A stretch of DNA of 62,521 nt from Nitrospiraceae bacterium (lineage in GTDB: Bacteria; Nitrospirota; Thermodesulfovibrionia; Thermodesulfovibrionales; UBA1546), in contig QZJQ01000003.1 in NCBI GenBank assembly GCA_003599795.1, positions 1 to 62,521 of the forward strand. Direction: 5' to 3'. The notes below the pieces were generated by a model. The model saw only the letters and a list, made by a program, of their open reading frames with translations, had not been told where the DNA came from and did not search any database. Positions 5,599 to 55,945 of the stretch are shown here, in pieces. Both the position numbers and the translations under genes were made by a program. The first letter of the stretch is position 1. Each line of letters starts with the position of its first letter.

Positions 5599-6972
5599 CT
5601 AAAATTCATACCGCATCTGGAAATACACATTATCATTCTTATCCAGCTGCCCGAACTGGCTCCACCTCTCGCCTTCGCCGAAGATGTTCGCTCCGACTGC
5701 AGCCCAGATATGGTCTGAGAAATTATATTTAACTTCGGGGTTCAGCATGTAATCTCCGTCAGACGTGCTGTAGAAGGAGAAGAATGAAAGCTTTAACGTC
5801 TGGTGCATGAGCATCTGCGTTAATCTTATGGTTGCAAGCTGATAGAGCTTTCTGTCCTTTGGAAGTCCCCCGGGCTGATTCTTTTTATACTCAGAATAAT
5901 CATGCATATATTCGCTAAGAAACTGCACCCCTACTGTGAAATCCTCCCATAACTGCCTCTGATACCCGATAAGAAATTTTGTCTGCGAATTCGGGACAGT
6001 ATAATCCGTTCCTGAGCTGTCTTGCCTTGAGTCATAATATCCCCCTTCAAGACTCAGAACACCGTCCAAGGCCCTTCCCTGAAGGCTCGCGCCGTAAACA
6101 GAGAGCTTGGGATAATGATATGTAATCTTTGTAGTGCTATTTATATCGTCAGGTATCATATAAGGCTTGCGGTAGAATCCCCTGTATAAATATACCGACG
6201 CATCAAACCCTGCAACATCCCTGTAAGCCCTTAATGCAAATTCTGTGTTCTTAAAATTCGTAGCAGGGTCTGTTTCTTCCCTGTTCGTAACGCCCGGCAT
6301 GGGGTCGAACATATAGAATCTTCTTGCATCGGTATAGTTATTAGGCTCAAATATCGGTATGGCAATGAATTCAAATGAGGCAAATTCCGGATAGGCCCCA
6401 ATCTTTACCCCGTCAGCTCCCTTTTTCATATACTCCAGCGGCCTTCCTGAAAAGAACGCCTCATAGTCTTTCGGAAATACATCATTTATAAATATCAGGT
6501 CTCCAATCCCCCATGTAATTATCTGCCTGCCTGCCCTTATATCCCATTTCTTTTCAACATGGTCAATATAGCCTTCCCTTAACTCTATCTGTGCCTTCTC
6601 ATCAATATGGTCATAAAAGGCGTCTGTTTTCAGGAATAACCTGAACGGCTCCTTTGAGGCGTCAAGCTTTAACTGCAATCTCTCCTCAGCCCATTTAAAA
6701 TCTCCTCCGTCAGGGTTAGCCCTTGTGCCAAAAGAATAATTCCCTTGAAAGAAGCCGTGAATAGAGACATCGGCTGCGTATGAAGGGAAAATACAAGCGC
6801 AGCAGAGCAGTAGCGCAGTAGAACAGTAGCGCAGTAGAACAGTAGCGCAGTAGAACAGTAGCGCAGTAGAACAGGTGATTTGTTTGCCTGTTGCTCTGCT
6901 GCTTTGTTGCGCTGTTGCGCTGTTGCTCTGCTGCTCCGCTGTTCTGTTGCTCTGCTTTTTCACTCTATCCAC
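5599..6972 (-). CDS. outer-membrane beta-barrel protein (DUF1302/porin-like); N-terminus encoded by a tandem-repeat element
   Basis: 457-aa ORF ending in aromatic YEF; alternating beta-strand pattern; adjacent to a LolA-like protein. The first ~55 codons are low-complexity repeat translation. Confidence 0.6.
   Translation of the reverse strand: MDRVKKQSNRTAEQQSNSATAQQSSRATGKQITCSTALLFYCATVLLRYCSTALLLCCACIFPSYAADVSIHGFFQGNYSFGTRANPDGGDFKWAEERLQLKLDASKEPFRLFLKTDAFYDHIDEKAQIELREGYIDHVEKKWDIRAGRQIITWGIGDLIFINDVFPKDYEAFFSGRPLEYMKKGADGVKIGAYPEFASFEFIAIPIFEPNNYTDARRFYMFDPMPGVTNREETDPATNFKNTEFALRAYRDVAGFDASVYLYRGFYRKPYMIPDDINSTTKITYHYPKLSVYGASLQGRALDGVLSLEGGYYDSRQDSSGTDYTVPNSQTKFLIGYQRQLWEDFTVGVQFLSEYMHDYSEYKKNQPGGLPKDRKLYQLATIRLTQMLMHQTLKLSFFSFYSTSDGDYMLNPEVKYNFSDHIWAAVGANIFGEGERWSQFGQLDKNDNVYFQMRYEF
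6797..6955. repeat. STRR-like tandem octamer repeat element (two arrays flanking a spacer)
   Basis: Left array (GCGCAGTA/GAACAGTA)n at 6797-6874, spacer GGTGATTTGTTTGC, right array (CTGTTGCK/CTGCTGCT)n at 6888-6955. Confidence 0.85.
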
Positions 6973-7748
6973 TTCTTCGGCGGCTGCTTGAGAAACCGCT
7001 CTGAAAACAGGCTGTCCTCAATGCCAACGTTGTAATCAATCTTCGTATATGCAACCTCTGTCCTGTGCCCGCTCAGAAGATTTTTCATGGTCCTTTTTGT
7101 GATTGTTGAAAAGCCCTTTACATCCTTAATCTCATCAGCGGAGAATACCCTGCTAAGCTCTCCTTTTTTGTCATAATATTCTTCCTTAAGCGGCAGAAAA
7201 TTGACTTTATCAACCCATGAGAGTTTATGAGCGTAATCAACATCACCCTTCTTAGGGGTACTTTTTACTACATAACAATCCCTTGCTCCGAGTTTTTCTT
7301 CTTTCACCATTGTATGCGTATCGTCCTGAATATCCCTGCCGGAAACATCCTCATATGTGAAATCAGAGCCAACAAAGCTTGAGGTCTTATCCTGCGCCGC
7401 AATCCTCCTGACCATGTTTATTGCAGGAACAAAAAGCCATCTGTCGTCGTCCTTTGCAGGATATTTATAGACCATGAAGGTCATGTCCTTAACATCAGCA
7501 GGCTGAAAGAAATACATAAAGAACCTCTGGTCGCCGCCGGCCTCCCCGAAGTTCTTCCTGAGCATGCTGAGCTCCCTTACCCTTTCCGCACCGCCTTTGC
7601 TTATGAGCTTCATCATTACCCGTGCCTTAAAGTCCTTGCCCTGATAGTGAAAAGCAGCCTGAGACTTTTTCATCACATCTTCAGCGCTTATTGCCAGCGC
7701 TTCAATAGGCAGAAGCATAACCAATAAAACAAGCAAATATCTCATCAT
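6960..7748 (-). CDS. outer-membrane lipoprotein-sorting (LolA-like) family protein
   Basis: 262-aa secreted ORF; family resemblance (FMYFFQPADVKDMTFM, DRWLFVPA, SFVGSDFTYEDV). Confidence 0.7.
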   Translation of the reverse strand: MMRYLLVLLVMLLPIEALAISAEDVMKKSQAAFHYQGKDFKARVMMKLISKGGAERVRELSMLRKNFGEAGGDQRFFMYFFQPADVKDMTFMVYKYPAKDDDRWLFVPAINMVRRIAAQDKTSSFVGSDFTYEDVSGRDIQDDTHTMVKEEKLGARDCYVVKSTPKKGDVDYAHKLSWVDKVNFLPLKEEYYDKKGELSRVFSADEIKDVKGFSTITKRTMKNLLSGHRTEVAYTKIDYNVGIEDSLFSERFLKQPPKKWIE

Positions 7749-7766
7749 CCAAACCCTCCTTGTTTT

Positions 7767-7824
7767 CAGTGTCAGTTTTTAGTGACAGTGTCAGTAGCTG
7801 ACACTAATCACTTGCACTGTCACT
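7767..7824. repeat. STRR-like heptamer element with nested inverted repeats (terminator-like)
   Basis: AGTGACAGTG...CACTGTCACT (10-bp arms) enclosing GTGTCAG-TAG-CTGACAC; units of CAGTGTC/CTGACAC type; lies just downstream of the DUF2892 stop. Confidence 0.7.
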
Positions 7825-9403: not shown

Positions 9404-9901
9404 TTACTTCTCCACCGGATAGTTTTTTGTTGCTGCCTTCTCAATTGCCTTTTTCATAGCCTCGCCGCCGCGATAATTTTTAATCCACGCTGCATGCCCG
9501 AAAGCCATCGTATATGCATCATAGCCAAGCACCCTCAGCGATACAACTGGAAGATTCTGCACCTGCCCCGTAACGCATACGAGAATTATCTTTTTGTCCT
9601 TTGGAAGTTTTCCAAGGTTTTCGGGCTTCAGAATCTCGTTATAGGATATGTGTATCGCCCCCGGAATATGACCTGCTTTGTATTCGCCTGGATTAGGCCT
9701 TACATCCACAACCAAGAAGTCTGTCTGCTTGGTCTTTATCCACATATAAACCTCGTCTGCAGTTACCTGCCAGTGTCCTTCTTCCAATCCCTTCATCAAC
9801 ACATCACTCATTTTTTTTGCAATGTCATCCTGCGCAAAAACAGGCACAGCCAGAGAAACAACAATAATAGCTATCATCAAATGCATCCCAATCTTTTTCA
9901 C
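9404..9901 (-). CDS. periplasmic rhodanese-domain sulfurtransferase
   Basis: 165-aa ORF, signal peptide ...VPVFAQDD; rhodanese motifs VVDVRP..GHIPGAIHI and active-site loop CVTGQ. Confidence 0.85.
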   Translation of the reverse strand: MKKIGMHLMIAIIVVSLAVPVFAQDDIAKKMSDVLMKGLEEGHWQVTADEVYMWIKTKQTDFLVVDVRPNPGEYKAGHIPGAIHISYNEILKPENLGKLPKDKKIILVCVTGQVQNLPVVSLRVLGYDAYTMAFGHAAWIKNYRGGEAMKKAIEKAATKNYPVEK

Positions 9902-9914: not shown

Positions 9915-9954
9915 TAACTTTTAACTTGTAACTTTTAACTTGTAACTTTACTAA
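9915..9954. repeat. STRR-like heptamer array (TAACTTT/TAACTTG)x5 ending in TTTACTAA
   Basis: Five tandem heptamers read directly, followed by TCAGGGGTCACGCCCCCGAG; intergenic between the rhodanese start and the upstream gene stop. Confidence 0.85.
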
Positions 9955-10383: not shown

Positions 10384-12728
10384 TATTTCACGCCTCCTTT
10401 AAACAGCCAGCCCTGCAATAAGACAATCAGGGCCGGGATATATATTATTGTCATCACTGCGCTCAGCAGCATCATGCTCACAATGAACGCTCCTACGGTG
10501 ATATAAGGCGTCAGCGGCGCAAAGAGCATAACAGAGAATGCCGACGCAAAAAGAACTGCATTGCGCATTATCCCCTTGCCGGGCCTTGCGGCAGTCCATA
10601 ATAAAGAATCAGTTATGAGTTCAGAGTTTGGAGTTTTAAGTTGTTCTGAACCTTTAACTTTTAACTCTAAACTTTCAACTAATCTTTGTTTAAACCTGCT
10701 TATGAAGTGAATTGCAAAGTCAACCGCCATGCCTAAAGATAACGTGGAAAGGACAGATATCGGCATGTCAAAGTCCTTGCCCATGAATCCGATTACGCCG
10801 TAGATGAGAATAACGGTGAACACAAGAGGGATATATCCCACAAAGGCCCACCTGAACGAATGGAAGTTAAAGCGCAGGATTACAAACACCACGATGAGCG
10901 CGATGGTGAAACCTGTGACCATATCCCACAGGACTTCCTCATTCCATACAAGGTTGAAATATGCCGTGCCCGCCGGTTTCAGGTTCATTGGCATGGGGTT
11001 CGCTTTTTTATATTCATTGACTGCGGCAATAACATCGCGCATTGCCTGAGCGTCCCATGTCTTGAGCTGCAGCCATATATTTGCCTTCGCAGCCTGATAG
11101 TCAATTACATTGTCCAGATCGGCAGGCTTTGCGGACATGCTGAACAAAAAAAGATACTGCCCGATTGCCGCTTTTGAATCCGGGATAGAGTCGTATTTTG
11201 GATCATCGTCATGGAGCACGAGGTTTATCCTCTTGACATAATCCACAACAGATGTGGTTTTCCCTACAACAGAAAGTTTTTCTATATGCCTTTGAAGCCC
11301 GTCTATGTATCGCATGGCTTCCGGTGTTTTTATGAAATTTTCTTCCTGAGCAGTTGCCACAATATAGCCAAGCGATGTGCCACCGAGGGCTTTGTTCATA
11401 ACGCTGTCGGCGACCCTGATGTCGCTCTTCTCCTTAAACCAATCCACCATATTGTTATTCACCACGGTCTTGCTTATGCCGAAGACGGCTATTACAAAAA
11501 GCACAACACCGGCAAAGACAACAGTTTTGGACTTATGCGCGCCGAGATGTGCAAGGCTTTTCAGGAATTGCGATGTCTTGCTTGAAGAAACATCTTCACC
11601 TTCGGAAGCTTTATCTAACTTTTCCTCTTTTACGAACATAAACATCGCAGGGATAAAGCTGAAGCTTAAAACCCTTAACATCACGGTCCCGAACGCAATA
11701 AGCCCGCCAAAGACCTTGACAGGGATAATGTTCATGAATAAAAGCACGGCAAAGCCTGCTGCGGTTGCCAGCGCCGTGTATCGCACAGGACGGCCTACAG
11801 CGTGCATCGTCTCAATTATCGCAGCCTTTTTGTCTCTCTTTTCTTTATAGCGGAAGTAAAACTCATTAAAAATGTGTATGCTGTCCGTAGCTATGGCCAT
11901 CAAAAACACAGGAGCCATGGAGCTCATTATGTGAATAGGGAATCCGAGCGCTATAAGCAGGCCCATGCTCCAGACAATGCTCATCATGGCATCCATCATC
12001 AGCGCAACAGAGAGAAAGAGATCTCTGAACATAAAATATCTGACAACAAGCATGACCATTCCTGCAATCGGGGCGAATATTGCCATGAGTTTGAACATGT
12101 CGGCGCCAAAGGTATCCCTTGCTACAGGGTCGCCTGCTATGTAGTATTTCTCATCGCCTTTTTCTTTCTTTACTGCCTCTCTGATTTTGTCTGCCACTTC
12201 TTTGCCGTTTGCGCCCTTTTCAAGCGGGACATATATGGCAGTGGTCTTCCCGTCTTTAGAGATAATCCGGTTAATAAACAGAGAATTTTCAAACAGCATT
12301 TTTCTTAAATGCTCAACCTCTTTATCTGTTTTAGGAACTTCGGTCATAAGAGGGGCTACCCTCAGCATTCCCTTTTCTGCCGTAACATTTGTGATGGTCG
12401 GAAAGCTGTTTACATCCCTTGCTGCAACGCCCTTGATCTTCAGTATCTCGTCTGTTATTCTCTGGACTTTGCCAAGCGTTTCTTTATTCAGAACACTTTT
12501 TTCGTTCACTATCCCTAAAACTATCATGTCCTCATAGAGCGCAAATGTCTTGTCAACTTCATCATTCCATACCCTTACATCGGATGTATCGGGGAGCATG
12601 TGTTTGGGATTAGTGTCTGTCTTCATCTTCGGAAACTGTGTCATGAAGGCAAGCGTAACGATTATTGAAAGGATCACGACCAGCTTTGGATGATTGACAG
12701 AAAACTCAACAAGTGAAAACTTTCGCAT
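10383..12728 (-). CDS. RND-superfamily exporter (MMPL/HpnN-like)
   Basis: 781-aa ORF with 12-TM, two-large-loop architecture typical of MMPL-type RND pumps. Confidence 0.8.
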   Translation of the reverse strand: MRKFSLVEFSVNHPKLVVILSIIVTLAFMTQFPKMKTDTNPKHMLPDTSDVRVWNDEVDKTFALYEDMIVLGIVNEKSVLNKETLGKVQRITDEILKIKGVAARDVNSFPTITNVTAEKGMLRVAPLMTEVPKTDKEVEHLRKMLFENSLFINRIISKDGKTTAIYVPLEKGANGKEVADKIREAVKKEKGDEKYYIAGDPVARDTFGADMFKLMAIFAPIAGMVMLVVRYFMFRDLFLSVALMMDAMMSIVWSMGLLIALGFPIHIMSSMAPVFLMAIATDSIHIFNEFYFRYKEKRDKKAAIIETMHAVGRPVRYTALATAAGFAVLLFMNIIPVKVFGGLIAFGTVMLRVLSFSFIPAMFMFVKEEKLDKASEGEDVSSSKTSQFLKSLAHLGAHKSKTVVFAGVVLFVIAVFGISKTVVNNNMVDWFKEKSDIRVADSVMNKALGGTSLGYIVATAQEENFIKTPEAMRYIDGLQRHIEKLSVVGKTTSVVDYVKRINLVLHDDDPKYDSIPDSKAAIGQYLFLFSMSAKPADLDNVIDYQAAKANIWLQLKTWDAQAMRDVIAAVNEYKKANPMPMNLKPAGTAYFNLVWNEEVLWDMVTGFTIALIVVFVILRFNFHSFRWAFVGYIPLVFTVILIYGVIGFMGKDFDMPISVLSTLSLGMAVDFAIHFISRFKQRLVESLELKVKGSEQLKTPNSELITDSLLWTAARPGKGIMRNAVLFASAFSVMLFAPLTPYITVGAFIVSMMLLSAVMTIIYIPALIVLLQGWLFKGGVK
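10624..10682. repeat. STRR-like heptamer element inserted in frame in the RND gene
   Basis: GAGTTTG GAGTTTT AAGTTGT - TCTGAACC - TTTAACT TTTAACT CTAAACT TTCAACT; translated as LVESLELKVKGSEQLKTPNSE within the ORF. Confidence 0.8.
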
Positions 12729-15446: not shown

Positions 15447-15465
15447 ATTAACCTCCCGTTTTTTA

Positions 15466-15555
15466 GAGCAGTAGTGCAGCAGAGCAACAGAACAGCAGTT
15501 AAATATTTTTCTCCTAACTTCTGCTCTTCTGGGCTACTGCTTTGCCGCTCTGTTC
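15466..15555. repeat. STRR-like repeat element, intergenic between the dsrF-like and dsrH-like genes
   Basis: GCAGTAGT GCAGCAGA GCAACAGA ACAGCAG - AT-rich spacer - CTGCTCTT CTGGGCTA CTGCTTTG CCGCTCTG; the arms are partly complementary. Confidence 0.8.
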
Positions 15556-15931: not shown

Positions 15932-15985
15932 GCAGCAGCTTCAGAACTACTGCTCTGTTGCTCTATTGCTCTATGCTCTTCATGC
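15932..15985. repeat. STRR-like repeat array at the 3' end of the dsrE-like gene
   Basis: GCAGCAG CTTCAGA ACTACTG CTCTGTT GCTCTAT TGCTCTA TGCTCTT; same unit family as 15466-15555 and 6797-6955. Confidence 0.7.
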
Positions 15986-18717: not shown

Positions 18718-20280
18718 ATGCTTAAAGATAAAATCCTGGTATTGGATTTCGGCTCGCAGTACACCCAGCTTATTGCAAGGCGCGTGAGAGAAAACAGCGT
18801 CTATTCCGAGATATTTCCGTATAATGCGCCTTTTGAAAAAATACTGGATTTTAAGCCGAAGGGGATTATTCTTTCAGGCGGGCCTTCAAGCGTTTACAGC
18901 AAGGGCTCCCCAATCCCTGATATAAAAATATTTAACCTTGGCATTCCGATTCTCGGCATATGTTACGGCATGCAGCTTATGGCTCATCTGCTTGGAGGCA
19001 AGGTTGCAAAAGCCGCAAAAAGGGAATACGGCAGGGCCGAGCTTATAATTGACGATGATTCAGACTTGTTCAGCGGCATAGCCGAACGCCCAACGCCCAA
19101 CGCCCAACGCCAGGCTGTTGTCTGGATGAGCCACGGAGACAGGATAGAAAAATATCCCGAAGGATTCATATCAATTGCCCATACTGACAATTCTCCTGTG
19201 GCGGCAATGGCAAATAAGAAGAAAAACTTCTATGCCCTTCAGTTCCATCCAGAAGTGGTCCATACGGAAAAAGGCAGGGAGATAATAAAGAATTTTATTT
19301 TCAACATCTGCGGCTCTAAACCAACCTGGACTATGAAATCCTTTATAGAGACTGCAAAGCATGAGATAAAGGAAAAGGTGGGGAATCAAAGGGTCGTATG
19401 CGGAATAAGCGGAGGCGTTGATTCATCTGTCACAGCAGTCCTTGTCCATGAGGCAATAGGCGATGCGCTTACCTGCATCTTTGTTGACAACGGTGTTCTA
19501 AGGCACGACGAGGCAAAAAAAGTTGAGCTCATGCTGAAGAAGAGTTTTCACATGAAGATAAAATACGTTGATGCCTCTGAAAGATTCCTTAAAAAACTCA
19601 AAGGCGTAAAAGACCCGGAAAGAAAAAGGAAGATTATCGGCAATGAATTCATAAGGGTGTTTGAAGACGAGGCCATGAAGATAATGAATGTCTCATTCCT
19701 TGCGCAGGGGACGTTGTATCCTGACGTGATTGAGAGCACATCATTCAAAGGCCCTTCAGCGACAATAAAAAGCCATCACAATGTCGGCGGCCTGCTTAAA
19801 AAGATGAAGCTGAAACTGATTGAGCCTCTGAGGGAATTGTTTAAAGACGAGGTCAGAGTGCTCGGGCGCGAATTAGGGATGCCTGATGAGACTATAAACC
19901 GCCATCCGTTTCCGGGGCCCGGGCTTGCGATAAGATGCATCAGCGATATTACAAAAGAACGGCTTGCTATTTTAAGAAAAGCGGATGTAATAGTTCTGGA
20001 TGAGATTAAAAAGGCGGGTCTATATAACAAAATCTGGCAGGTATTTGCAGTTCTCCTTCCTGTAAAAAGCGTCGGGGTAATGGGAGATGAAAGGACGTAT
20101 GACAATGTAATCGCTGTCCGGGCTGTTACGAGCGTTGACGGAATGACAGCTGACTGGGCGCAGATTCCCTATGAAGTTCTGGGAAGGATATCAAACAGGA
20201 TAATAAATGAAGTCAAAGGCGTAAACCGCGTTGTTTATGACATAAGCTCAAAACCCCCAAGCACTATTGAATGGGAATAA
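18718..20280 (+). CDS. guaA: GMP synthase (glutamine-hydrolysing)
   Basis: 520-aa ORF; GATase (GICYGMQ), ATP-PPase SGGVDSS, C-terminal ...KPPSTIEWE. Confidence 0.97.
19082..19111. repeat. heptamer array (CGCCCAA)x3-4 in frame inside guaA
   Basis: gccgaaCGCCCAACGCCCAACGCCCAACGCC, translated [10 protein letters not shown] in a surface-variable part of the GATase domain. Confidence 0.8.
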
Positions 20281-21171: not shown

Positions 21172-23084
21172 AGCTCATAAAAAAAATAAAGTCCCCTGAT
21201 GACCTGAAATCCCTGTCAGTTGAGGAGATGAACAGCCTCTCCGCAGAACTGAGGGAAATAATCGTGGAGCGCGTATCAATTAACGGCGGGCACCTTGCGC
21301 CGAACCTCGGCACCGTAGAGCTGACTCTGGCGCTTCATTATGTGTTCAATTCCCCTGTTGATAAGATTATATGGGACGTAGGACACCAGTCATATACGCA
21401 TAAGCTCATCACAGGGAGATATGAAAAATTTGAAACTATCAGAAAACATAAAGGCATCTCGGGATTTCCTAAGATAGAAGAGAGCGTCCACGACGCATTC
21501 GGTACAGGGCACAGCTCAACATCAATATCAGCGGCATTAGGAATCATAGCGGCGCGTGATAGAAAAAATGAAACGTTTAAAGTGCTTGCTGTTATAGGCG
21601 ACGGCGCAATGACTTCCGGGCTTGCGTTTGAAGGGCTGAACCACGCCGGGCATCTGAAAAAAGACCTTATCGTGGTGCTGAATGATAATGAGATGTCAAT
21701 TTCAAAAAACGTAGGGGCCTTGTCTGCGTATCTAAATAGAATACTTACAGGAGACCTCTACCAGCGGTTTAGAAAGCAAACCAAATCATTCCTTGAGGGT
21801 ATTCCAAAGTTTGGTGATCAGGTTTCAAAGCTTGCACAGAAGGCAGAAGAAACTTTGAAAGGGCTCTTTCTGCCGGGGATATTGTTTGAAGAACTCGGGA
21901 TTAATTATGTAGGCCCCATAGACGGGCATGACATCAAACTGATGATAGAGACCTTCAGGAATATCAAAAACTCAACAGAGCCTACATTAGTCCATGTCAT
22001 CACAAAAAAAGGCAAGGGATATGAGTTCTCTGAAAAAGACCCGTGTATATTTCACGGAGTAGGGCCGTTTGAAATAGAAACCGGCTCTTCTGTAAGCGAC
22101 ACCAGTGCTATTTCATACAGTGAAATATTCGGCATGGCGCTTACAGAGCTTGCTGAAAAAAACGAGAGGGTTATTGCCATCTCTGCTGCAATGAGGGAAG
22201 GAACAGGGCTTGAATGCTTTGAAAAAAAATATCCGGACAGATTTTATGACGTCGGCATAGCAGAGCCGCATGCAGTGACATTTGCGGCAGGGCTTGCAGT
22301 GCAGGGATTGAGGCCTGTGGTCGCAATATATTCCACCTTCCTTCAGCGCGGTTATGATGAGATAATCCATGACGTCTGCCTCCAGAACCTGCCTGTTGTC
22401 TTTGCGATTGACAGGGCAGGCATAGTCGGCGAGGACGGCCCGACACATCAGGGAGTCTTTGACATTTCTTATTTAAGGCATATTCCCAATCTTACTGTCA
22501 TGGCGCCGAAGGATGATATGGAACTCAAAGCCATGCTTGAACTCGCTTTAAAACACAACGGCCCCTCGGCAATCAGGTATCCGAGAGGGAAAGTAAGTCA
22601 GGGGTCAGGGGTTAGGGGTCTCGCCTCAGGCGAGTCGCCGAGGAGACAGGGGTTAGAGATTGAAATTGGAAAGGCAGAGATTTTAAAAGAAGGCTCTGAT
22701 GTTGCATTGATAGCAATAGGCAATGTTGTCCATCCCGCTCTTGCAGCAGCAGAGAGGCTTGAAAAAGACGGGATAAAGGCATCAGTCATAAATGCAAGAT
22801 TCATAAAACCGCTTGATAAGGAACTTATCCTGAAAATTGCATCAAAGACAAAAAGGATAATCACAATTGAAGAGAACATGATTGCCGGAGGATTCGGAAG
22901 CGCAGTCCTTGAATATCTGAACAGCACGGATATTCCTGATACAAAGATTAAAATCCTCGGCATACCTGATGAATTTGTAGAGCAGGGCGCGCAGGCTATA
23001 TTAAGGAAAAAGTACGGAATTGATGAAGAAGGGATTTATCAGTCCTGCAGGGCATTTCTCTTAACGCCTACGCAAGTTCGCTGA
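21168..23084 (+). CDS. dxs: 1-deoxy-D-xylulose-5-phosphate synthase
   Basis: 638-aa ORF; TPP motif GDGAMTSG...NDN; transketolase-like domains; ends in TGA. Confidence 0.97.
   Translation: MKLIKKIKSPDDLKSLSVEEMNSLSAELREIIVERVSINGGHLAPNLGTVELTLALHYVFNSPVDKIIWDVGHQSYTHKLITGRYEKFETIRKHKGISGFPKIEESVHDAFGTGHSSTSISAALGIIAARDRKNETFKVLAVIGDGAMTSGLAFEGLNHAGHLKKDLIVVLNDNEMSISKNVGALSAYLNRILTGDLYQRFRKQTKSFLEGIPKFGDQVSKLAQKAEETLKGLFLPGILFEELGINYVGPIDGHDIKLMIETFRNIKNSTEPTLVHVITKKGKGYEFSEKDPCIFHGVGPFEIETGSSVSDTSAISYSEIFGMALTELAEKNERVIAISAAMREGTGLECFEKKYPDRFYDVGIAEPHAVTFAAGLAVQGLRPVVAIYSTFLQRGYDEIIHDVCLQNLPVVFAIDRAGIVGEDGPTHQGVFDISYLRHIPNLTVMAPKDDMELKAMLELALKHNGPSAIRYPRGKVSQGSGVRGLASGESPRRQGLEIEIGKAEILKEGSDVALIAIGNVVHPALAAAERLEKDGIKASVINARFIKPLDKELILKIASKTKRIITIEENMIAGGFGSAVLEYLNSTDIPDTKIKILGIPDEFVEQGAQAILRKKYGIDEEGIYQSCRAFLLTPTQVR
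22597..22657. repeat. STRR-like heptamer/hairpin element in frame inside dxs
   Basis: GTCAGGG GTCAGGG GTTAGGG GT-CTCGCC-TCA-GGCGAG-...GACAGGGGTTAGAG; translated QGSGVRGLASGESPRRQGLE. Confidence 0.85.
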
Positions 23085-27565: not shown

Positions 27566-28854
27566 ACGAAAAGTTTAGAGTTAAAAGTTTAGAGTTAAAA
27601 GTTTTTATATTTTTCTTCTGTTTTTCATTTTTAACTTTTAACTTTCAACTTTCAACTTGCGAAGCAAAGATTTACATTGATATAACCTCTCCGGCGATAA
27701 AAAAACTCCCGATAGCTGTTCAGGAACTCAGCGGCACAGAGGGAAAGCAGCTTGCAGACATCATAAGGGAGGACCTTGAGTTCACGGGTTTTTTCCTCTC
27801 CATTGACAAGGCCGCCTACTTAGAGAAATCGGCTGAAGCGTTCAACCCTAAAAACTGGACTGTAATCGGCGCAGAGGCTGTTATAAAGGGAACTGTGCGC
27901 GGAGAACAAAACCTCACGGCAGTTGTATCGCTTTATGATACAAGCGAAGGCAGAGAGGTGTTAAAGAGAGAATACAAAGGAACAAAGGCATCTCTAAGGC
28001 ATCTGGGCCACACTATTGCAGGCGATATATACCAGCATATTACAGGAGAAAAAGGCATATTCGGGACCAAGGTGGCTTTTGTTGCGGAAGACGAGGGCAA
28101 AAAGGGGCTTTATATGATGTCATGGGACGGCACAGATATTAAACGGCTCGGAATTAAAGGGAATTTTGTCCTCAGGCCGCACTGGTCGCAGGACGGCAAG
28201 AGAATTGTTTACTCATCTGAAAGGGGTGGACAATGGGGTATATATTTGTTAGACTTTACGAAAATGACTGAAAAAAAAGTTTTTGCCTCCAGAGGGCTTA
28301 ATATCACAGGCAATTTTTCCCCTGACGGAGATGAGATTATGTTTTCATCATCGCAGGATGAAACGTATGGCCTTTATAACTTTAGGATTTCAGATTCAAA
28401 ACTTACACGCATAACTTCTGCAAGATGGATAGAGATTTCGCCTGCTGTCTCGCCTGACGGAAAACTTGTCGCCTTTGTATCAGACCGCGGCGGAACCCCC
28501 CAGATATATATAATGAGCAGGAACGGCCATGACACAAGAAGAGTGACTTTTGAAGGCTCGTATAATACCTCGCCAAGCTGGTCTCCTGACGGAAAAAAAA
28601 TCGTGTTTGTCGGGAGAGTCTCAGGCAAGCACCAGATTTTCATTATCTCTCCTGACAGCGCCTCTCTTACACAGCTGACAGACAAAGGCAACAATGAAGA
28701 CCCTTCATTTTCTCCTGACGGAAGATTTATAATATTCTCATCTGACAGAAACGAAGGAAATGGCATTTACATAATGAGGGCCAACGGAGAAGCACAAAAG
28801 AAAATAACCCCGCCGTGGTTACGGGCCTTTGGCCCAAGGTGGTCGCCAAATTAA
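27562..28854 (+). CDS. tolB: Tol-Pal system beta-propeller protein TolB
   Basis: 430-aa; repeated PxWSPDG(K/R) WD40-like blades. The N-terminal 32 codons are encoded by a repeat element. Confidence 0.95.
   Translation: MNEKFRVKSLELKVFIFFFCFSFLTFNFQLSTCEAKIYIDITSPAIKKLPIAVQELSGTEGKQLADIIREDLEFTGFFLSIDKAAYLEKSAEAFNPKNWTVIGAEAVIKGTVRGEQNLTAVVSLYDTSEGREVLKREYKGTKASLRHLGHTIAGDIYQHITGEKGIFGTKVAFVAEDEGKKGLYMMSWDGTDIKRLGIKGNFVLRPHWSQDGKRIVYSSERGGQWGIYLLDFTKMTEKKVFASRGLNITGNFSPDGDEIMFSSSQDETYGLYNFRISDSKLTRITSARWIEISPAVSPDGKLVAFVSDRGGTPQIYIMSRNGHDTRRVTFEGSYNTSPSWSPDGKKIVFVGRVSGKHQIFIISPDSASLTQLTDKGNNEDPSFSPDGRFIIFSSDRNEGNGIYIMRANGEAQKKITPPWLRAFGPRWSPN
27570..27658. repeat. STRR-like heptamer element encoding the TolB signal-peptide region
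   Basis: AGTTTAG AGTTAAA AGTTTAG AGTTAAA AGTTT - T-rich spacer - TTTTAAC TTTTAAC TTTCAAC TTTCAAC; translated KFRVKSLELKVFIFFFCFSFLTFNFQLSTCEA. Confidence 0.85.
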
Positions 28855-33314: not shown

Positions 33315-33319
33315 TAACC

Positions 33320-38630: not shown

Positions 38631-38661
38631 CTCTTTAGCTTTCTAAGAGTTTATTCAAACT

Positions 38662-39726: not shown

Positions 39727-39811
39727 AGCAAAAAAAGCCGCTCCTAACTTTTCGCTAATTATGGTATTATATTTCATATTAAATTTAGTATTAGAAAGGA
39801 TGTGAGATAAG

Positions 39812-40388: not shown

Positions 40389-40412
40389 TCCTGATTAAAA
40401 TCATATTCTCTC
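40389..40412 (+). repeat. right copy of the direct repeat flanking phd-parE
   Basis: See 39703-39726. Starts immediately after the parE stop and lies ~25 nt upstream of the next gene. Confidence 0.75.
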
Positions 40413-40438
40413 CACAGAAAATCAGTTAATATTATTTC

Positions 40439-41461: not shown

Positions 41462-41463
41462 TG

Positions 41464-50060: not shown

Positions 50061-52889
50061 CTACAAATAATACTCTTTCAGGTATTTTCCTGTATATGAT
50101 GTTTTTGATTTTATTATATCTTCGGGTTTTCCTTCAAATATTATCCTGCCTCCCCTTTCCCCGCCCTCAGGCCCCAAATCAATAATTTTGTCTGCTGCCC
50201 TGATGACATCAAGGTTATGCTCTATAACAAGAACTGTATTTCCTGTATCAACAAGCCTCTGAAGAACGTCAAGCAATGCCTTCACATCTTTGAAATGAAG
50301 CCCGACCGTAGGTTCGTCAAGAATGTATAGATAATGGGGGTTGGGGGTTGGGGATTGGTTTTTACTAACCCCTAATCCCCAGTCCCTAATCCCTGTCAGT
50401 TCGTTGCATATTTTTATCCTCTGCGACTCGCCTCCTGAAAAGGTTGTTGCCGGCTGTCCGAGCCTGAGATAACCGAGCCCGATGTCTTTCATTAATGACA
50501 GCCTGCCTTTAATCTGTGTGATACCTGAAAAGAAATCCGAAGCCTCATCAACCGTCATGTTCAGGATGTCATTAATATTTTTGCCTTGATATGAAATCCT
50601 CAATGCCTCAGGTTTATATCTCTTGCCTCCGCACTCTTCGCACGTCACATAAAGGTCTTCAAAAAAATACATCTCCATCTTCTGATACCCCTCGCCCCTG
50701 CATGTCTCACACCTGCCGCCGGGAACATTAAATGAAAAAAATCCCGGGCTGTATCCGTGCGCCTTTGCCTCGTGCTGTTCTGAAAAAAGCCTGCGGATAG
50801 GGTCAAACATTTTAAGATAGGTAAGTACATTTGAACGAGGGCTTTTGCCTATCGGAGCCTGGTCTATAAGTTTTACGTTTTTTATGTGCTCTGTTCCGCT
50901 TATGCCTTTATACGGCAGCGGCACATCAGGTTCAACCTTAAAATGTTTTGCCAGTGCCCTGTAAAATGTCTCAACCACAAGGCTGCTTTTGCCTGAGCCT
51001 GAAACTCCGGTTACTGCCGTAAGGGTCCCTATTGGTATTTTGAGGTCAACGGATTTAAGGTTATTGCCCGAGGCGCCGCTCAGTGATACAAAGTATTTAG
51101 GAGTTAGGGGCCGGGGTTTAGTTTTACTAACCCCTAATCCCAAATCCCTAATACCCGTTTTGTTGATGTATTGTGCCGTCAACGTGTCTGCTTTCAAAAA
51201 AATTTCCATTGCTCCTGAAAATACAACCGCTCCTCCATTACTGCCGCCTCCGGGGCCCAGCTCCACCACCCAGTCGGCAGTTTTGATAATATCTTTGTCG
51301 TGTTCAACAACAATTATCGTATTGCCAAGCCCTGAGAGTTCAGACATTATCTTTGCGATTCTTTCGGTATCCCTTGGATGAAGCCCGACTGTAGGCTCAT
51401 CAAGCACATAAAGCGTTCCGGTGAGCAGGGAACTGAGCTGGTTTGAAAGATTTACGCGCTGATATTCTCCTCCTGAAAGCGTCTTGCCCTGCCTGCTGAG
51501 GCTGAGATAATCAAGGCCGACTCTGCTGAGGAATTGAAGTTTCAGACTTATCTGTCTGAGAGGTTCCTTCGCAAGGTCTCTTTGAAATCGTGATATGTCA
51601 GCATCAGTGAAAAACTTTATAAGCCCTGAAACAGGAAGTTCGCAAATTTCGGCGATATCAAGATTGGAAACCTTATATGCAAGCGATTCCTTTTTCAGCC
51701 TTTTGCCCTTGCACGCGTGACATACAGCTGCCTTCCTGTGTCTGCTCAGAAATACCCTGACATGCAGTTTATATCTTTTGGTTTCAAGCTCCTCAAAAAA
51801 ATTGTCTATGCCGTAGAAATCATCTGTGCCTTTAAAGAGCTTGCCTTTTTCTTCCTTTGAAAGCTCATTGAAAGGTTTCTTTATATCAATGCCTGCTTTT
51901 TTAGCCCCTGCAATCATCTGTTTTTTCCACCACTTATATCCGGCTTTTTCCCATACGCCTATGGCGCCTTCTGAAAGGGAAAGATACTTATCCGGGATTA
52001 TAAGTTCTTCATCATAAACAAGAATATTTCCGAACCCTTTGCATTCAGGACACGCTCCAATAGGGTGATTAAAGGAGAACAGCAGCGGCGAAGGCTCAGG
52101 AAGAAAGATATTGCACTCATCGCATACATTCTCGGAAGAAAAACTGTGAACTGTGAACTGCGAACCGTGAACTGCATCAACGAGGATAACTTTCATGCTT
52201 CCGTTTCCCTCTTTCCATGCCATCTCTATGGAATCCGAAAGCCTCGGCTCATCTTTTATCACAAGCCGGTCAAGAACGATATCAAAGCGTTCAGCGTTCA
52301 GCGTTCGGCGTTCAGCGTTTTTTTCTGACAGCTGACGGCTGACAACTGACAACTCAAGTACTTCTCCATCAATCCATGCCCTGTGAAAACCCCTTTGTTT
52401 GAGGCTCTCAAGTGATTCCGAAGAATTGAAGATGATTATTGCCTTGCTTCCCGTATATTTTTCAGTTAATTCCTTGGCCACCTGAGAGGCATCCCATTTC
52501 CGTATCTCTTTCCCGCACCTGGGGCAGAATGGAGTTGCTATTTTTGAATAAAGAAGCCGCAGAAGGTCATAGATTTCCGTAAGAGTTCCCACTGTTGAGC
52601 GCGAGCCTTTGACAGGATTTTTCTGTTCAAGGGCTATGGCAGGACGTATATTGTGGATTGCGTCAACATCAGGCCTGTCAAGTTTTTCAAGGAAAAGCCG
52701 CGCATAAGTTGACAGGGATTCAATAAACCTCCACTGCCCTTCTGCAAAGATTGTGTCAAATGCAAGAGATGACTTGCCTGAGCCTGAAACTCCGGTTACT
52801 GCAATGACCTTGTCATGCGGAAGGCGGAGCGTGATATTTTTGAGGTTGTTCTGCCGCGCCCCCTCAATTATAAGCTCCCTGTTTGGCAT
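50061..52889 (-). CDS. uvrA: excinuclease ABC subunit A
   Basis: 942-aa; two ABC modules (GVSGSGKSS twice, LSGGE.QR, LDEPT.GLH twice), zinc modules. Contains four in-frame repeat insertions. Confidence 0.97.
50336..50394. repeat. STRR-like hairpin element (G-rich heptamers - TTTTACTAA - C-rich heptamers) in frame in uvrA
   Basis: GGGGGTT GGGGGTT GGGGATT GG-TTTTTACTAA-CCCCTAAT CCCCAGT CCCTAAT CCC; translated [19 protein letters not shown] between the ABC signature and Walker B of the second module. Confidence 0.9.
51100..51155. repeat. second copy of the same element in uvrA
   Basis: GGAGTTAGGGGCCGGGGTTTAG-TTTTACTAA-CCCCTAATCCCAAATCCCTAATACC. Shares the 20-mer TTTTACTAACCCCTAATCCC with 50336-50394; translated [19 protein letters not shown]. 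Confidence 0.9.
52144..52175. repeat. heptamer array (CTGTGAA)x4 in frame in uvrA
   Basis: CTGTGAA CTGTGAA CTGCGAA CCGTGAA CTGC; translated [10 protein letters not shown]. Confidence 0.85.
52287..52354. repeat. double heptamer array (GCGTTCA)x4 - T7 - (CTGACAR)x4 in frame in uvrA
   Basis: Read directly; translated [24 protein letters not shown]. Confidence 0.85.
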
Positions 52890-53239: not shown

Positions 53240-55945
53240 ATGGCTGACGATACAATACATAACCTATTTCTTAAAACTGCCGAAGAGCATAAGGACGGCA
53301 TTGCATTTAACTACTTTGACGGCGAGTGGAAGAAGATAACCTACGGCGCATTTGCTTCAGATTCAAAAGCCATCGCATCCTGCCTGATAAAAACAGGCAT
53401 CTGCAAGGCTGACAGAATTGCCGTATACTCGGAGAACAGGCCTGAATGGTGCGCCTCATACTTGGGAATCATGATTGCCGGAGCAATTGCTGTTCCGATT
53501 GATTCACAGCTCAATGCTGAATCTGTAAAAAATCTTCTTATTGATTCGGAATCAAGGGCTATCTTTTTCAGTTCAAAGACAGAAGCAAGTGTAAATGAAG
53601 CAACAAATGGGCTGGGGATAAGAAAAATAAGTTTTGATGCCCCTGATTTTAAGGAGATGTGCGGATTTGCTCCGGCAGAAGCTGCCCATTATCCTGAAAC
53701 ATCGCCTGATGACATTGCCTCCATCATCTATACATCGGGAACAACAGGGACGCCCAAAGGCGTGATGCTTACGCACAGAAATTTCTGCTCTGACGCAAAG
53801 GCTCTGATAAATGTAGGCATTATCACAAAATCCGACAATGTGCTTTCGCTTTTGCCTCTGCATCATACCTATCCTTTCATGTCCACTTTCCTTGTGCCTT
53901 TATTTTTAGGCGCGGCAATAACCTATTCCCCGAGTTTGAAGGGGCCTGAGATTACCGCATCAATGAGAGACAACGGCGTCACTATTCTTGTCGGCGTTCC
54001 TCAATTGCTTGAGATGATAAAAAACGGGATTATGGATAAGTTTAAAAAGCTTACCACGCCTCTGCCGCTGTTAATAAAAGCACTGTTGGAAATTTTCGGC
54101 AGCCTGAGAAAGAAAACAGGCATCAATATCAGCAAGGCAATATTAAAACCGGTTCACAGCGCGCTTGGAAGCAGATTCAGATTTTTTGCAAGCGGCGGCG
54201 CAAAGCTGGACCCTGCAGTGATGGCAGGACTTGAGGCGCTTGGCTTTACCGTGCTTGAGGGTTACGGGCTTACAGAGACATCTCCTGTTGTTACATTCAA
54301 CCCGATAAGCAAGCGGAAGCCCGGCTCTGCCGGAAAACCTCTGCCTTCGGCAGAGATAAAAATAATAAACCCTTCAGACGGAAGTGTATTAGATATTGGT
54401 AAGGAAGGGGAAATTGCAATCAGGGGCCCGATGGTGATGAAGGGCTATTATAAAAACCCCTCTGCAACAGAGCAGGCGATAAGAGATGACTATTTTTTCA
54501 GCGGAGACCTCGGCTATATTGACAGGGACGGCTATCTTTTCATCACAGGACGTATAAAGGAAGTCATTGTTCTCGGCTCAGGCAAGAATATTTATCCTGA
54601 AGAAGTGGAAAAGGAATATTCCGCTATTCCTCTGATTAAAGAAATCTGCGTGCTTGGCATTGAAGAAAAAGGCAGGATAGAAGCCCTTCATGCGATCATT
54701 GTCCCCGATTTTGAATATGCAAAAAAACAGCAGACAGGCAATATCCATGAGGCATTGGGGTGGGACCTAAGCCGCATCTCAGGCAAGCTGCCGCCTTACA
54801 TGAGGATTAAAGGTTTTACGCTGTCTTCCGAGCCTCTGCCGAGGACTCCTCTCGGGAAATTAAGAAGATTCATGATTAAAGATTTGATAAAAGAAAAGTT
54901 CCAGCCTCGGGCGGGTTCGCCTGTGGCGAAAAGGGTTAAGAGTGAAGATAAAGAACTTATGGCAGATGAAACAGGCAGAAATGTGGTTGAATGCGTAAAG
55001 CCTTTTCTCAAAGAACCGGCGGCGGTTCAATCTAAAGACAACCTTGAACTGGACCTCGGCCTTGATTCATTGCAAAGGATAGAACTTGTTGTAAGCCTTG
55101 AAAATAAATTTTCCATAAAACTTCCCGAAACATTTGCATCAGATATTCAGACAGTCGGAGAGATAGTGGAGAAGATAAAACAGTCCGCAGTCCATAGTCC
55201 GCAGTCAGCAGTCCGCTATCAGCAAGCGGAAAAAGGGCTTTTGAATATTTTCTCGCAAGAGCCTTCTGATGAGGAGAAGAAAAAAATCGGGCTTAAGCAA
55301 GGCGCAATAGAATGGTTTTTTGTGTCACTCCTGATGGGGCTTATCAAAACGTTTTTCAGAATATTTTTCAGGCTTGAAGTTAAAGGCGTAGAAAATATAC
55401 CCCCTGTCCCGTTTATCATCGCCCCAAACCACTGCAGCAATCTGGACGGTTTTGCAGTCGCTGCTGCTCTTCCTTTAAAAATTTACAGGACGCTTTATTT
55501 TCAGGGATTTCAGAAATATTTCACAAGCAGGCTGACTGCATTTTTTGCAGGGCTTGCTCACGTTATCCCCATAGACCCTGAGACCTTTCTTGGAAAAGCG
55601 CTCCAGCTCTCTGCCTATGTACTGAAAAATAACAAGGCGCTCTGCATATTTCCCGAAGGCGGAAGGTCCTATGACGGAACTCTGATGGAATTCAAAAAAG
55701 GCATCGGTATCCTTGCCTTGGAGCTCAACGTGCCTGTGGTCCCTGCAATGATAAGAGGAAGTTTTGAGGCCTTGCCAAAAGGCGCATTCCTGCCGAAATT
55801 TAAAAAGATAACAATACGTTTTGCTAAACCTTTATATCCTTCATTGCCGGATATAACCGGAGAACAGACCGGCAGAGACAAATATCAGCTGTTTGCTGAT
55901 GAACTACGGGAAAAAGTGGCAGAGCTATCCGCAAGACCTTTCTGA
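53240..55945 (+). CDS. tri-domain fusion: AMP-dependent acyl-CoA/ACP synthetase - acyl-carrier domain - 1-acyl-sn-glycerol-3-phosphate acyltransferase (Aas-like)
   Basis: 901-aa; AMP-binding motif YTSGTTGTPKGV and GDLGYIDRDGYLFITGR; phosphopantetheine site LGLDSLQRIEL; PlsC HxxxxD motif NHCSNLD and FPEGGRS. Confidence 0.85.
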   Translation: MADDTIHNLFLKTAEEHKDGIAFNYFDGEWKKITYGAFASDSKAIASCLIKTGICKADRIAVYSENRPEWCASYLGIMIAGAIAVPIDSQLNAESVKNLLIDSESRAIFFSSKTEASVNEATNGLGIRKISFDAPDFKEMCGFAPAEAAHYPETSPDDIASIIYTSGTTGTPKGVMLTHRNFCSDAKALINVGIITKSDNVLSLLPLHHTYPFMSTFLVPLFLGAAITYSPSLKGPEITASMRDNGVTILVGVPQLLEMIKNGIMDKFKKLTTPLPLLIKALLEIFGSLRKKTGINISKAILKPVHSALGSRFRFFASGGAKLDPAVMAGLEALGFTVLEGYGLTETSPVVTFNPISKRKPGSAGKPLPSAEIKIINPSDGSVLDIGKEGEIAIRGPMVMKGYYKNPSATEQAIRDDYFFSGDLGYIDRDGYLFITGRIKEVIVLGSGKNIYPEEVEKEYSAIPLIKEICVLGIEEKGRIEALHAIIVPDFEYAKKQQTGNIHEALGWDLSRISGKLPPYMRIKGFTLSSEPLPRTPLGKLRRFMIKDLIKEKFQPRAGSPVAKRVKSEDKELMADETGRNVVECVKPFLKEPAAVQSKDNLELDLGLDSLQRIELVVSLENKFSIKLPETFASDIQTVGEIVEKIKQSAVHSPQSAVRYQQAEKGLLNIFSQEPSDEEKKKIGLKQGAIEWFFVSLLMGLIKTFFRIFFRLEVKGVENIPPVPFIIAPNHCSNLDGFAVAAALPLKIYRTLYFQGFQKYFTSRLTAFFAGLAHVIPIDPETFLGKALQLSAYVLKNNKALCIFPEGGRSYDGTLMEFKKGIGILALELNVPVVPAMIRGSFEALPKGAFLPKFKKITIRFAKPLYPSLPDITGEQTGRDKYQLFADELREKVAELSARPF
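55181..55222. repeat. heptamer array (CAGTCCG-type) in frame in the Aas-like gene
   Basis: CAGTCCG CAGTCCA TAGTCCG CAGTCAG CAGTCCG CTATCAG; translated QSAVHSPQSAVRYQ in the linker between the carrier and acyltransferase domains. Confidence 0.85.

Follow-up and report, generated by a model that had tools for sequence, protein, structure and literature searches.

Heptamer repeats have stood unexplained in a few bacterial groups for 35 years and have been treated as intergenic, possibly regulatory sequences. Among them are the short tandemly repeated repetitive (STRR) sequences of heterocystous cyanobacteria (Mazel et al. 1990), with the unit consensus CCCCA(A/G)T, TT(G/T)GTCA and CAACAGT. Here we describe STRR-like heptamer arrays in a stretch of 62,521 nucleotides of a groundwater Nitrospiraceae bacterium (contig QZJQ01000003.1, hereafter the window), for which an earlier note, made from the sequence alone, had proposed a dispersed family of heptamer and octamer hairpin elements. 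The arrays extend this type of repeat to the Nitrospirota and widen its host range, and in this lineage repeats with a non-triplet unit inhabit essential genes as often as the DNA outside them, edited only at would-be stop codons.

Palindromic repeats within genes are reportedly known from Rickettsia, where the Rickettsia palindromic elements (RPEs) of Ogata et al. (2000) are said to lie in frame in unrelated housekeeping genes whose function is kept, to be translated into additional surface segments and to use one orientation and frame in every host gene. RPEs are 100-150 bp long with a fixed consensus, belong to obligate intracellular alphaproteobacteria, and represent old and fairly stable insertions. 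The small dispersed repeats (SDRs) of Nostoc, from Elhai et al. (2008), are said to be tiny palindromes inserted within tandem heptamer arrays.

STRR hairpins lie between hupS and hupL and were proposed to stabilise transcripts (PMC2670836), and arrays of the STRR/GGGGA(C/T)T type, the G-rich heptamers of Xanthomonas and Nostoc, are over-represented in non-coding and under-represented in coding DNA (PMC4692102). Direct TAACTGA repeats were described by MacGregor in 2015 in Beggiatoaceae, cyanobacteria and Bacteroidetes as 2-6 copies just upstream of start codons, with occasional in-frame copies that give LSVISYQ-type peptides (PMC4679880), and the position before start codons was also reported for Nostoc heptamers (bioRxiv 10.1101/2022.06.06.494920). 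RPEs are mentioned in PMC10969869, and for repetitive extragenic palindromes (REPs), bacterial interspersed mosaic elements (BIMEs) and the REPIN-RAYT system we rely on PMC3116915. Full-text literature searches returned no report linking Thermodesulfovibrio or Nitrospir* with heptamer or heptanucleotide repeats.

Arrays were called with Tandem Repeats Finder (TRF) in the window and in related loci, and the chance expectation for the window was taken from 40 third-order Markov simulations; a strict period counter of our own (mismatch -3) found five arrays only, was too stringent, and was replaced by this procedure. TRF detected 14 period-7 arrays in the window, where the simulations gave a mean of 1.27 and a maximum of 5, and five period-8 arrays against a simulated mean of 1.9, so that the dispersed arrays proposed earlier exceed chance at period 7. 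The period-7/8 calls cover 6796-6954, 9915-9949, 10649-10680, 15465-15498, 15947-15979, 19081-19111, 22597-22620, 27569-27658, 50335-50394, 51127-51152, 52142-52174, 52286-52351 and 55181-55224. Period 7 is found at 11 of the 14 loci, the remaining three having 8/16-nt units or a weak period-13 score; 7767-7824 is the sole locus without a period-7/8 call, a weak period-13 array, yet it forms a clear CAGTGTC/GACACTG hairpin. Essentially all the arrays of the earlier note were recovered by TRF and by reading of the sequence, although its count of at least 15 loci has to be lowered to the 14 for which it gave coordinates. A typical array has 3-5 copies, and the window elements measure 30-160 nt.

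The same period dominates among relatives. In 80 UvrA-centred Nitrospirota loci (1.29 Mb in total) TRF found 199 arrays of period 7, whereas periods 6, 8, 9 and 10 gave 19, 84, 78 and 49; among arrays scoring at least 50 there were 52 of period 7, 18 of period 8, two of period 12 and none of period 6, 9 or 10. Array density is uneven among these genomes, some exceeding 5 per 10 kb and many having zero. The units are diverse, with 85 distinct canonical heptamers among 147 lineage arrays, and one unit is often reused at several non-orthologous sites within one genome. Trinucleotide skews in the units are mild (ACT 2.4x, TCA 1.8x), and a unit motif that would point to a sequence-specific enzyme was discarded on these grounds. 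Since orthologous sites in independently assembled genomes carry the same elements, we reject an assembly artefact; the elements are neither confined to this contig nor placed at assembly joins, outcomes by which the note had proposed that its claim could fall.

The host is not a cyanobacterium, as the note had argued from gene content, because the closest relatives of its UvrA and KdsB are all Thermodesulfovibrionales/Nitrospirota. A UvrA search of 185,579 species genomes gave best matches that were all metagenome-assembled genomes of this group, at 83-86% identity (e.g. Nitrospirae bacterium GWF2_44_13), which also ruled out an origin in Beggiatoaceae. Like STRR sequences, the arrays consist of 7-nt units in short tandem runs, with many unit types per genome, and are paired as hairpins between cistrons; individual units are also alike, with CCCCAGT/CCCTAAT here for CCCCA(A/G)T and CTGACAA for TT(G/T)GTCA. 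The likeness in unit sequence claimed by the note is nevertheless modest: five of 12 window units match an STRR unit at 6/7 positions or better, above the 8.4% of random heptamers (P 0.002), but three of the five belong to one family and most units do not match. Copy number is lower than in Nostoc, where up to 26 copies occur, and the arrays are not mainly intergenic, with nine of 14 window loci in frame within genes and 65-81% of strong lineage arrays in open frames. The architecture is therefore of the STRR type, whereas the host and the intragenic habit fall outside the STRR definition.

Four of the five intergenic window elements stand ahead of start codons, as TAACTGA repeats do, with a weak enrichment of this placing across the related loci, and the units GCTATCA and GTTGTCA, one base from the TAACTGA complement, give LSAISYQ and LSVVSRQ in UvrA. 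The window has no TAACTGA array itself, and the 85 units found here contrast with the one dominant unit of the Guaymas Beggiatoa genome, where related heptamers are rare. In-gene TAACTGA copies are few, peripheral and mostly in hypothetical proteins, whereas those described here are internal to conserved enzymes, and hairpin pairing is common here while a single indirect (inverted) repeat was found for TAACTGA (PMC4679880).

The repeats had been taken as generic dispersed elements, and they are indeed dispersed, but it had been overlooked that nine of the 14 loci lie in frame within conserved genes: uvrA (four), guaA, dxs, tolB, an MMPL transporter gene and an aas-like gene. Positions outside genes account for the other five, which fall between cistrons or in leaders of minus-strand operons (LolA-like/DUF1302-like, rhodanese and DsrE/DsrH-like). 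The elements are as follows, with z referring to folding; the uvrA sites are named E1 (50335-50394), E2 (51100-51155), E3 (52142-52175) and E4 (52286-52354).

6796..6954, minus strand: two-arm hairpin of 8/16-nt units (TRF scores 144 and 79-90).
7762..7824, minus strand: CAGTGTC/GACACTG hairpin in the 5' leader of the LolA-like gene (RNA z -5.6, DNA z -4.0, inverted repeat).
9915..9954, minus strand: single array (TAACTTT/TAACTTG)x5 (TRF score 56-70).
10624..10682, minus strand: two-arm hairpin (GAGTTTG.. / ..AACTTTT) encoding RLVESLELKVKGSEQLKTPNSEL (RNA z -3.2, DNA z -2.4).
15465..15555, minus strand: octamer hairpin (AGAGCAGC.. / ..CTGCTCTT) (RNA z -4.2).
15932..15985, minus strand: octamer array (CTATTGCT)x4 with a short stem in the DsrE-like leader (TRF score 45, RNA z -0.9).
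19081..19111, plus strand: single array (GCCCAAC)x4.4 encoding 10 residues (TRF, 95% matches).
22597..22657, plus strand: (GTCAGGG)x3.4 and a nested GC-rich palindrome (GTCTCGCCTCAGGCGAG..GAGAC) (TRF, Pfam, alignment, inner stem on folding).
27569..27658, plus strand: two-arm hairpin of (AAAAGTTTAGAGTT)x2.6, a T-rich spacer and (TTTCAAC)x4.3 (inverted repeats 81-88% complementary, RNA z -2.7).
50335..50394, minus strand: E1, GGGATTA family, encoding 19 residues (TRF, alignment, predicted local distance difference test (pLDDT)).
51100..51155, minus strand: E2, second GGGATTA-family copy, encoding 20 residues (TRF, alignment, pLDDT).
52142..52175, minus strand: E3, single array, sense (GTTCACA)x4.7, encoding 11 residues (TRF, relatives).
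52286..52354, minus strand: E4, sense (GTTGTCA)x4, GAAAAAAA, (CGCTGAA)x4, encoding 23 residues (TRF, relatives, pLDDT).
55181..55224, plus strand: array (CAGTCCG)x5 encoding QSAVHSPQSAVRYQ (RNA z -3.2).

Pfam domains are found on either side of every in-gene element. The 10624 element lies in the C-terminal part of the MMPL/RND-like transporter gene (10383-12728, minus strand), the 22597 element in the linker between domains II and III of dxs (21168-23084, plus strand), where the loop including VSQGSGVRGLASGESPRR is 11 residues longer than in E. coli Dxs (2o1s) by alignment, and the 55181 array in the linker between the acyl-carrier and acyltransferase domains of the aas-like acyl-ACP synthetase/acyltransferase gene (53240-55945, plus strand). 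The 19081 array sits in the glutamine amidotransferase domain of guaA (18718-20280, plus strand), where alignment with the solved homologue 5tw7 gives a net gain of four residues; judged by this alignment, the array partly overwrites an existing loop and is not a pure insertion. In tolB (27562-28854, plus strand) the hairpin encodes the whole signal peptide of TolB (MNEKFRVKSLELKVFIFFFCFSFLTFNFQLST|CEA). Over 27562-27665 the purine-rich arm gives the charged start of this signal peptide and the complementary T-rich arm its hydrophobic core, and the TolB ortholog of the related locus L004 (11400-11570) has a longer leader that also holds a nested C6/G6 palindrome. The strand in use differs with the site, A-rich sense strands (K/N/E/T/S/Q) being found in soluble loops and T-rich ones, giving an F/L/I-rich core, in signal peptides.

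Genes normally contain few repeats with a unit length other than a multiple of three. In the lineage, strong arrays outside uvrA were counted as coding when the frame was open for at least 50 codons on both sides; 37 of 57 strong period-7 arrays (65%) lay in such long open frames, as did 21 of 26 (81%) of those scoring at least 50, compared with 60% of random positions. Strong arrays are not depleted from coding sequence, and it is unusual for repeats with a non-triplet unit to be so common in genes. The in-gene arrays are predicted to be translated as extra low-complexity, fast-changing segments in surface loops, linkers and signal peptides. We consider it on balance probable that these elements are repeat DNA of an STRR-like kind, which slippage, conversion and dispersal have spread and which survives where the product tolerates it.

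UvrA carries four elements in one protein. The gene (50061-52889, minus strand) encodes 942 residues, of which 4-939 align with T. maritima UvrA (3pih, E 1.6e-257), the elements standing out as extra loop residues. E1, with the sense strand (GGGATTA GGGACTG GGGATTA GGGG)-TTAGTAAAAAC-(CAATCCCC AACCCCC AACCCCC), lies in the second ATPase half, flanked by its ABC signature and its Walker B motif, and E2 in the linker joining the two ATPase halves. In an AlphaFold model built with 43 orthologs as input (mean pLDDT 76), pLDDT falls below 50 at residues 191-199 (E4), 579-594 (E2) and 835-849 (E1), and E3 is found in a loop; the occupied sites are predicted to be surface loops or linkers.

The arrays in UvrA appear to be read through, since every would-be in-frame stop is broken by a point change. 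Each array was rebuilt from its own consensus unit, in frames already known to be intact, and all 14 in-frame stops expected in the idealised arrays proved to be broken by substitution, compared with a mismatch rate of 4.3% elsewhere in the arrays. In the (CGCTGAA)n arm of E4 the second right-arm unit is CGCcGAA, which removes TGA, and in the (GGGATTA)n arms the deviant units GGGActg (E1) and GGGATTt (E2) each remove TAG. The UvrA arrays are as pure as the reading frame allows, which fits a DNA-level drive towards uniformity that is countered by selection on the protein. Purity of this kind, pointing to a DNA-level force, also speaks against selection on the protein as the origin, namely that flexible low-complexity linkers and signal peptides are useful and the DNA period is a side effect. 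Such selection would agree with the placing of the elements in linkers and loops, with their supply of the TolB signal peptide and with a strand orientation suited to context, A-rich in soluble loops and T-rich in signal peptides, but a 7-nt period brings no advantage to a protein over 6 or 9, the peptides are not conserved between close relatives, and the same arrays occur in non-coding DNA. We therefore hold it to be very unlikely.

Of the 81 UvrA orthologs examined, 80 are intact and in frame. Each 7-nt copy gained or lost changes the frame, and arrays also adjoin start codons, as would be expected of contingency loci in which 7-nt slippage switches genes on and off (phase variation). However, the genes concerned are single-copy housekeeping genes (guaA, dxs, uvrA, tolB, kdsB), the arrays are short with 3-5 copies, and the one UvrA that is the exception, in the related locus L003, ends in a C-run palindrome and not in a heptamer array, so that we give phase variation hardly any credence. 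The L003 frame stops in the C7 run of a C/G palindrome at E1 (7770-7808), the protein ending ...TPPSRPP; a frameshift in the homopolymer or an error of assembly at this repeat would account for it.

The intergenic elements are placed close to translation starts, and four of the five end 0-15 nt ahead of a Shine-Dalgarno site. The 7762 hairpin ends 9 nt before the AAGGAGG site of the LolA-like gene, the 9915 array directly adjoins the GGAGGA site of the rhodanese gene (9404-9901), the 15465 hairpin, between the DsrE-like (15556-15909) and DsrH-like (15165-15446) genes, ends about 10 nt before a GGGAGG site, and the 15932 array about 12 nt before AAGGAGG. The 6796 element, with the plus-strand structure (AGCGCAGTAGAACAGT)x4.9, spacer GTGATTTGT, (TTGCTCTG)x9, sits between the LolA-like gene (6960-7748) and the DUF1302-like gene. 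Since the latter has no in-frame start downstream of the hairpin and its sole open frame begins at GTG 6972, the DUF1302-like protein may be translated from this codon through both arms, as a long N-terminal signal sequence (...STALLLCCACIFPSYA|AD).

The two-arm design was analysed over 25 adjacent array pairs of the window and related loci, whose units are complementary at 4.76 of 7 positions compared with 3.54 for random pairs (P<2e-4), in agreement with the partial complementarity of the arms noted previously. Pairing never reaches 7/7 among the 25 pairs, 5/7 being typical, and four loci (9915, 19082, 52144 and 15932) are single arrays without a convincing hairpin, so that the plan of array, T/A-rich spacer and second array is real but imperfect. 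The spacer TTTACTAA, which the note reported as frequent among the elements, is not enriched, with four occurrences in the window against 2.3 expected; one family alone has it as a loop (uvrA sites 50336 and 51100), and it is also found at the end of the 9915 array, defines no single family, and was ruled out as a family-wide core. Folding, which the note had put forward as a check, is significant for the intergenic hairpins 6796 (-59.2 kcal/mol), 7762 and 15465, with RNA z of -3.9, -5.6 and -4.2 and DNA z of -3.0, -4.0 and -2.1, and as RNA for the elements in the MMPL, tolB and aas-like genes (-3.2, -2.7 and -3.2), but marginal for three uvrA elements (RNA z about -1.1), the DNA folds being broadly alike; the 9915 array forms no hairpin (RNA z 0.0). 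Over 50330-50400 the hairpin is better as antisense DNA (z -2.1) than as sense RNA (z -1.1), and on the sense strand of uvrA four G3-4 tracts lie in the G-rich arm of this GGGATTA-family element, which could form a G-quadruplex in the mRNA. No window element matches any Rfam 15 covariance model at gathering score, the sole Rfam/ARAGORN match in the window being a tRNA-Val (CAC) at 33667-33741 on the minus strand.

These positions bring in the possibility that the elements are cis-regulatory RNAs, in which leader and inter-cistronic arrays control translation or mRNA decay and the in-gene copies are by-products. Besides the four window elements that precede Shine-Dalgarno sites, lineage arrays outside long open frames have a Shine-Dalgarno site and a frame within 30 nt in 12% of cases compared with 3% at random, a weak enrichment based on small numbers and a crude gene model, and members of the GGGATTA family stand just before start codons in L150 and L184. 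The same position is known for TAACTGA (PMC4679880) and for Nostoc heptamers (bioRxiv 10.1101/2022.06.06.494920), and the STRR hairpins of hupS-hupL were proposed as transcript stabilisers (PMC2670836). Most strong arrays, however, lie inside genes, their units are too diverse for one binding protein, and elements are gained and lost between close relatives at one gene. Moreover, inter-arm mismatches on the sense strand are A.C in 12 cases and G.U in two; this excess fits the removal of stop codons by T-to-C change from a formerly better palindrome and argues against selection for a sense-strand RNA hairpin. G.U wobble, considered as a sign of such a hairpin, was ruled out since the asymmetry runs the opposite way. 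A primarily regulatory origin is unlikely in our opinion; by analogy, the intergenic hairpins may additionally affect mRNA stability or translation.

Comparison of relatives reveals that the sites are hypervariable. Among relatives with about 85% UvrA identity the four sites carry different units, different families or nothing, and presence/absence polymorphism at orthologous loci, which the note had proposed to look for, was found for example at E3 and between tolB and pal. E2 belongs to the GGGATTA family in the window and L004, is (CGTAATC)4-loop-(CATCACG)4 in L001, (GGAGATAC)2...(GATTCACC)3 in L003 and (AGTTTCA)4...(AAAACTC)5 in L010, and is non-repetitive in L002, L005 and L050, with single GAGATAC and ATTTCACC motifs. 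The L003 arrays look like in-situ expansions of the single GAGATAC and ATTTCACC motifs seen in L002. E3 carries an element in the window, L001 and L003 and none in L002, L004, L005 and L050, and at E1 six close relatives have three unrelated elements between them. The four sites are shared in mutually discordant ways and the flanks co-vary with the element, which points to recombination between lineages. Within UvrA clusters of >90% identity, indels are concentrated at E4, where one form lacks only the left arm and where a 19-residue C/G-palindrome peptide (ELINTKNPPIPPLPKGGEGGFF) beside the array is present or absent. L004 alone has a 61-nt CAGTGAA/CTGACAC hairpin between tolB and the ribosome-binding site of pal, with none at this place in the window; it is of the same family as the window element at 7767. 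A KdsB search returned Nitrospirota proteins only, of 252-284 residues, whose length differences fall at one loop with the same variety of repeat-derived peptides as UvrA; as far as these protein sequences indicate, KdsB is an independent second gene with array turnover.

At least two families are spread over several sites. The GGGATTA family has the form (AGGGRTTA)3-4, loop TTAGTAAAA(A), (CCCCAAC/CCCCTAA)3-4, both its ends (AGGGRTTA...TAACCCCT) and its loop being conserved. Depending on the genome it takes up three different sites in UvrA, and as many as three copies share one UvrA (P0017); further in-frame copies lie in KdsB (L130, L176) and a NagA-like protein (L145), and in L150 and L184 it stands directly ahead of start codons. 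In all host genes it keeps one orientation and frame, GIRDWGLG[VI]SK. A metagenome pattern, GGGGN{3,8}TTTTACTAAYCCC, was too loose, since among 120 loci about 13 were true family members and most were chance; the metagenome contigs L192, L117 and L124 carry neighbour genes 67-79% identical to those of Nitrospirota loci. In its single orientation and frame, and as a palindromic repeat in frame in conserved genes (UvrA, Dxs and GuaA, and for this family UvrA, KdsB and the NagA-like protein), the behaviour is similar to that of RPEs. Unlike RPEs, however, the elements are built of tandem heptamers, are 30-160 nt long with diverse units, belong to Nitrospirota and turn over rapidly at their sites; by analogy, the in-gene copies would work as RPEs do, yet they are not RPEs.

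Conserved ends and loop, in unrelated genes and intergenic sites of several Nitrospirota, would be expected of discrete miniature mobile elements, similar to miniature inverted-repeat transposable elements, REPINs or SDRs. Their copying would depend on a dedicated enzyme, for instance a hairpin transposase of the RAYT/IS200 type or a reverse transcriptase, with its gene elsewhere in the genome. On this account sites are reused because existing hairpins are preferred targets, and clean presence/absence (the tolB-pal hairpin and the 19-residue peptide) and the small palindromes nested in arrays (dxs of the window and E3 of L003) would be explained. The elements also share with REP/BIME sequences that they are short, dispersed and hairpin-forming, possibly mRNA-stabilising, and reused as insertion targets; REPs, however, have a fixed consensus and a RAYT transposase and are extragenic by definition, whereas here there is no fixed consensus, most copies are intragenic and no RAYT was found in the 50 window open reading frames (ORFs) scanned. 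Nor was any transposase or reverse transcriptase found among these ORFs, which leave out 41.9-50 kb, 56-62.5 kb and about 13 ORFs, and no target-site duplication surrounds 18 copies of the GGGATTA family. With 85 units among 147 arrays, most without recognisable conserved ends, with arrays that look like local expansion of pre-existing sequence, and with others that partly overwrite a loop (only four residues gained in guaA), this explanation appears possible but rather doubtful.

Relatives also contain a second in-frame class, absent from the window, of C5-7...G5-7 palindromes that give peptides of the PPSRPPLARGGWGG and NPPIPPLPKGGEGGF types. They were found at UvrA E1 of L001, L004 and L050, at E4 of UvrA cluster 6, in L004 at 11443-11500 and in the KdsB proteins P0184, P0193 and P0257, often in or beside heptamer arrays, and are present or absent among proteins more than 90% identical. 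The GC-rich palindromes that interrupt arrays in dxs of the window, E3 of L003, tolB of L004 and E4 of cluster 6 may be comparable to the SDRs reported from Nostoc; the sequences differ, and the C5-7...G5-7 class lies in frame in genes and gives PPxPPLxKGGxGG peptides.

Returning to slippage, conversion and dispersal, we propose that the arrays would arise and be kept uniform by processes that act on the DNA without regard to the reading frame. An array would originate at a small seed by replication slippage or template switching, and the second arm by snap-back duplication after slippage; conversion between arms and between copies would then homogenise the units, and some families would be dispersed to new sites and exchanged between strains by homologous recombination. 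Selection would act as a filter on frame, stop codons and hydropathy, leaving survivors in leaders and inter-cistronic spacers, often right before the ribosome-binding site, and at in-frame, stop-free spots in surface loops, inter-domain linkers and signal peptides. Copies within genes would be tolerated passengers, analogous to RPEs. We infer the origin by slippage and conversion, the neutrality of the peptide inserts and any role at the RNA level from these patterns.

Several points weigh against this proposal. A single 7-nt slippage shifts the frame, and it is hard to see how essential genes could change so rapidly without lethal intermediates; nor does the proposal explain why the period is 7 (and 8) instead of the frame-neutral 6 or 9. 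The 81 uvrA genes hold 56 strong arrays, at a density roughly fivefold that of their flanks, which pure neutrality does not predict. The avoidance of stops is partly circular, since intact open frames were selected, and the translation of in-gene arrays is predicted from sequence. Hairpin stability is not significant in several in-gene elements (DNA z -0.5 for E2 and +0.2 for E4). The lack of target-site duplications around the 18 GGGATTA-family copies and of a transposase, reverse transcriptase or RAYT in the scanned ORFs also tells against it.

A further idea is that a dedicated molecular process, independent of sequence and with a built-in step of 7 nt, writes the arrays into coding and non-coding DNA alike; a templated polymerase, a reverse transcriptase or hairpin-directed repair might be responsible. 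Scattered heptamer-rich lineages such as heterocystous cyanobacteria, Beggiatoaceae, some Bacteroidetes, Xanthomonas and Thermodesulfovibrionales would have this process in common, through descent or transfer; we regard the idea as improbable. If true, the process would keep rewriting the tolerant loops of essential Nitrospirota proteins and would even supply signal peptides. The arrays offer a natural experiment in which selfish or slippage-driven DNA creates peptide segments (loops, linkers and signal peptides), reveal protein sites that tolerate new segments, and provide material for seeking the cause of the 7-nt period. In practice, they make divergence look larger than it is, disrupt assemblies and gene calls, and can mislead alignment-based phylogeny of marker genes.

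The remaining gene content of the window, with cytochromes, DsrE/F/H-like proteins, Tol-Pal, glycolysis genes and toxin-antitoxin pairs, is ordinary for a sulfur-cycling anaerobe. Differences from relatives that are not heptamer-based include a 53-nt AT-rich intergenic segment present in L002 (15140) and L003 (8526) and not in the window (47710), and a 69-nt segment at 44554-44622 of the window that is not in L004. Toxin-antitoxin-like genes are found at 23317-23577 (HicA) and 33033-33619 (ParE-like plus helix-turn-helix). A 3.6-kb segment, 37864-41464, looks like a small variable island, since L002, collinear apart from this, has 77 nt in its place. On it lie genes for an ORF6N-domain protein and a 4Fe-4S protein, a Phd/ParE toxin-antitoxin pair and an unknown ORF.

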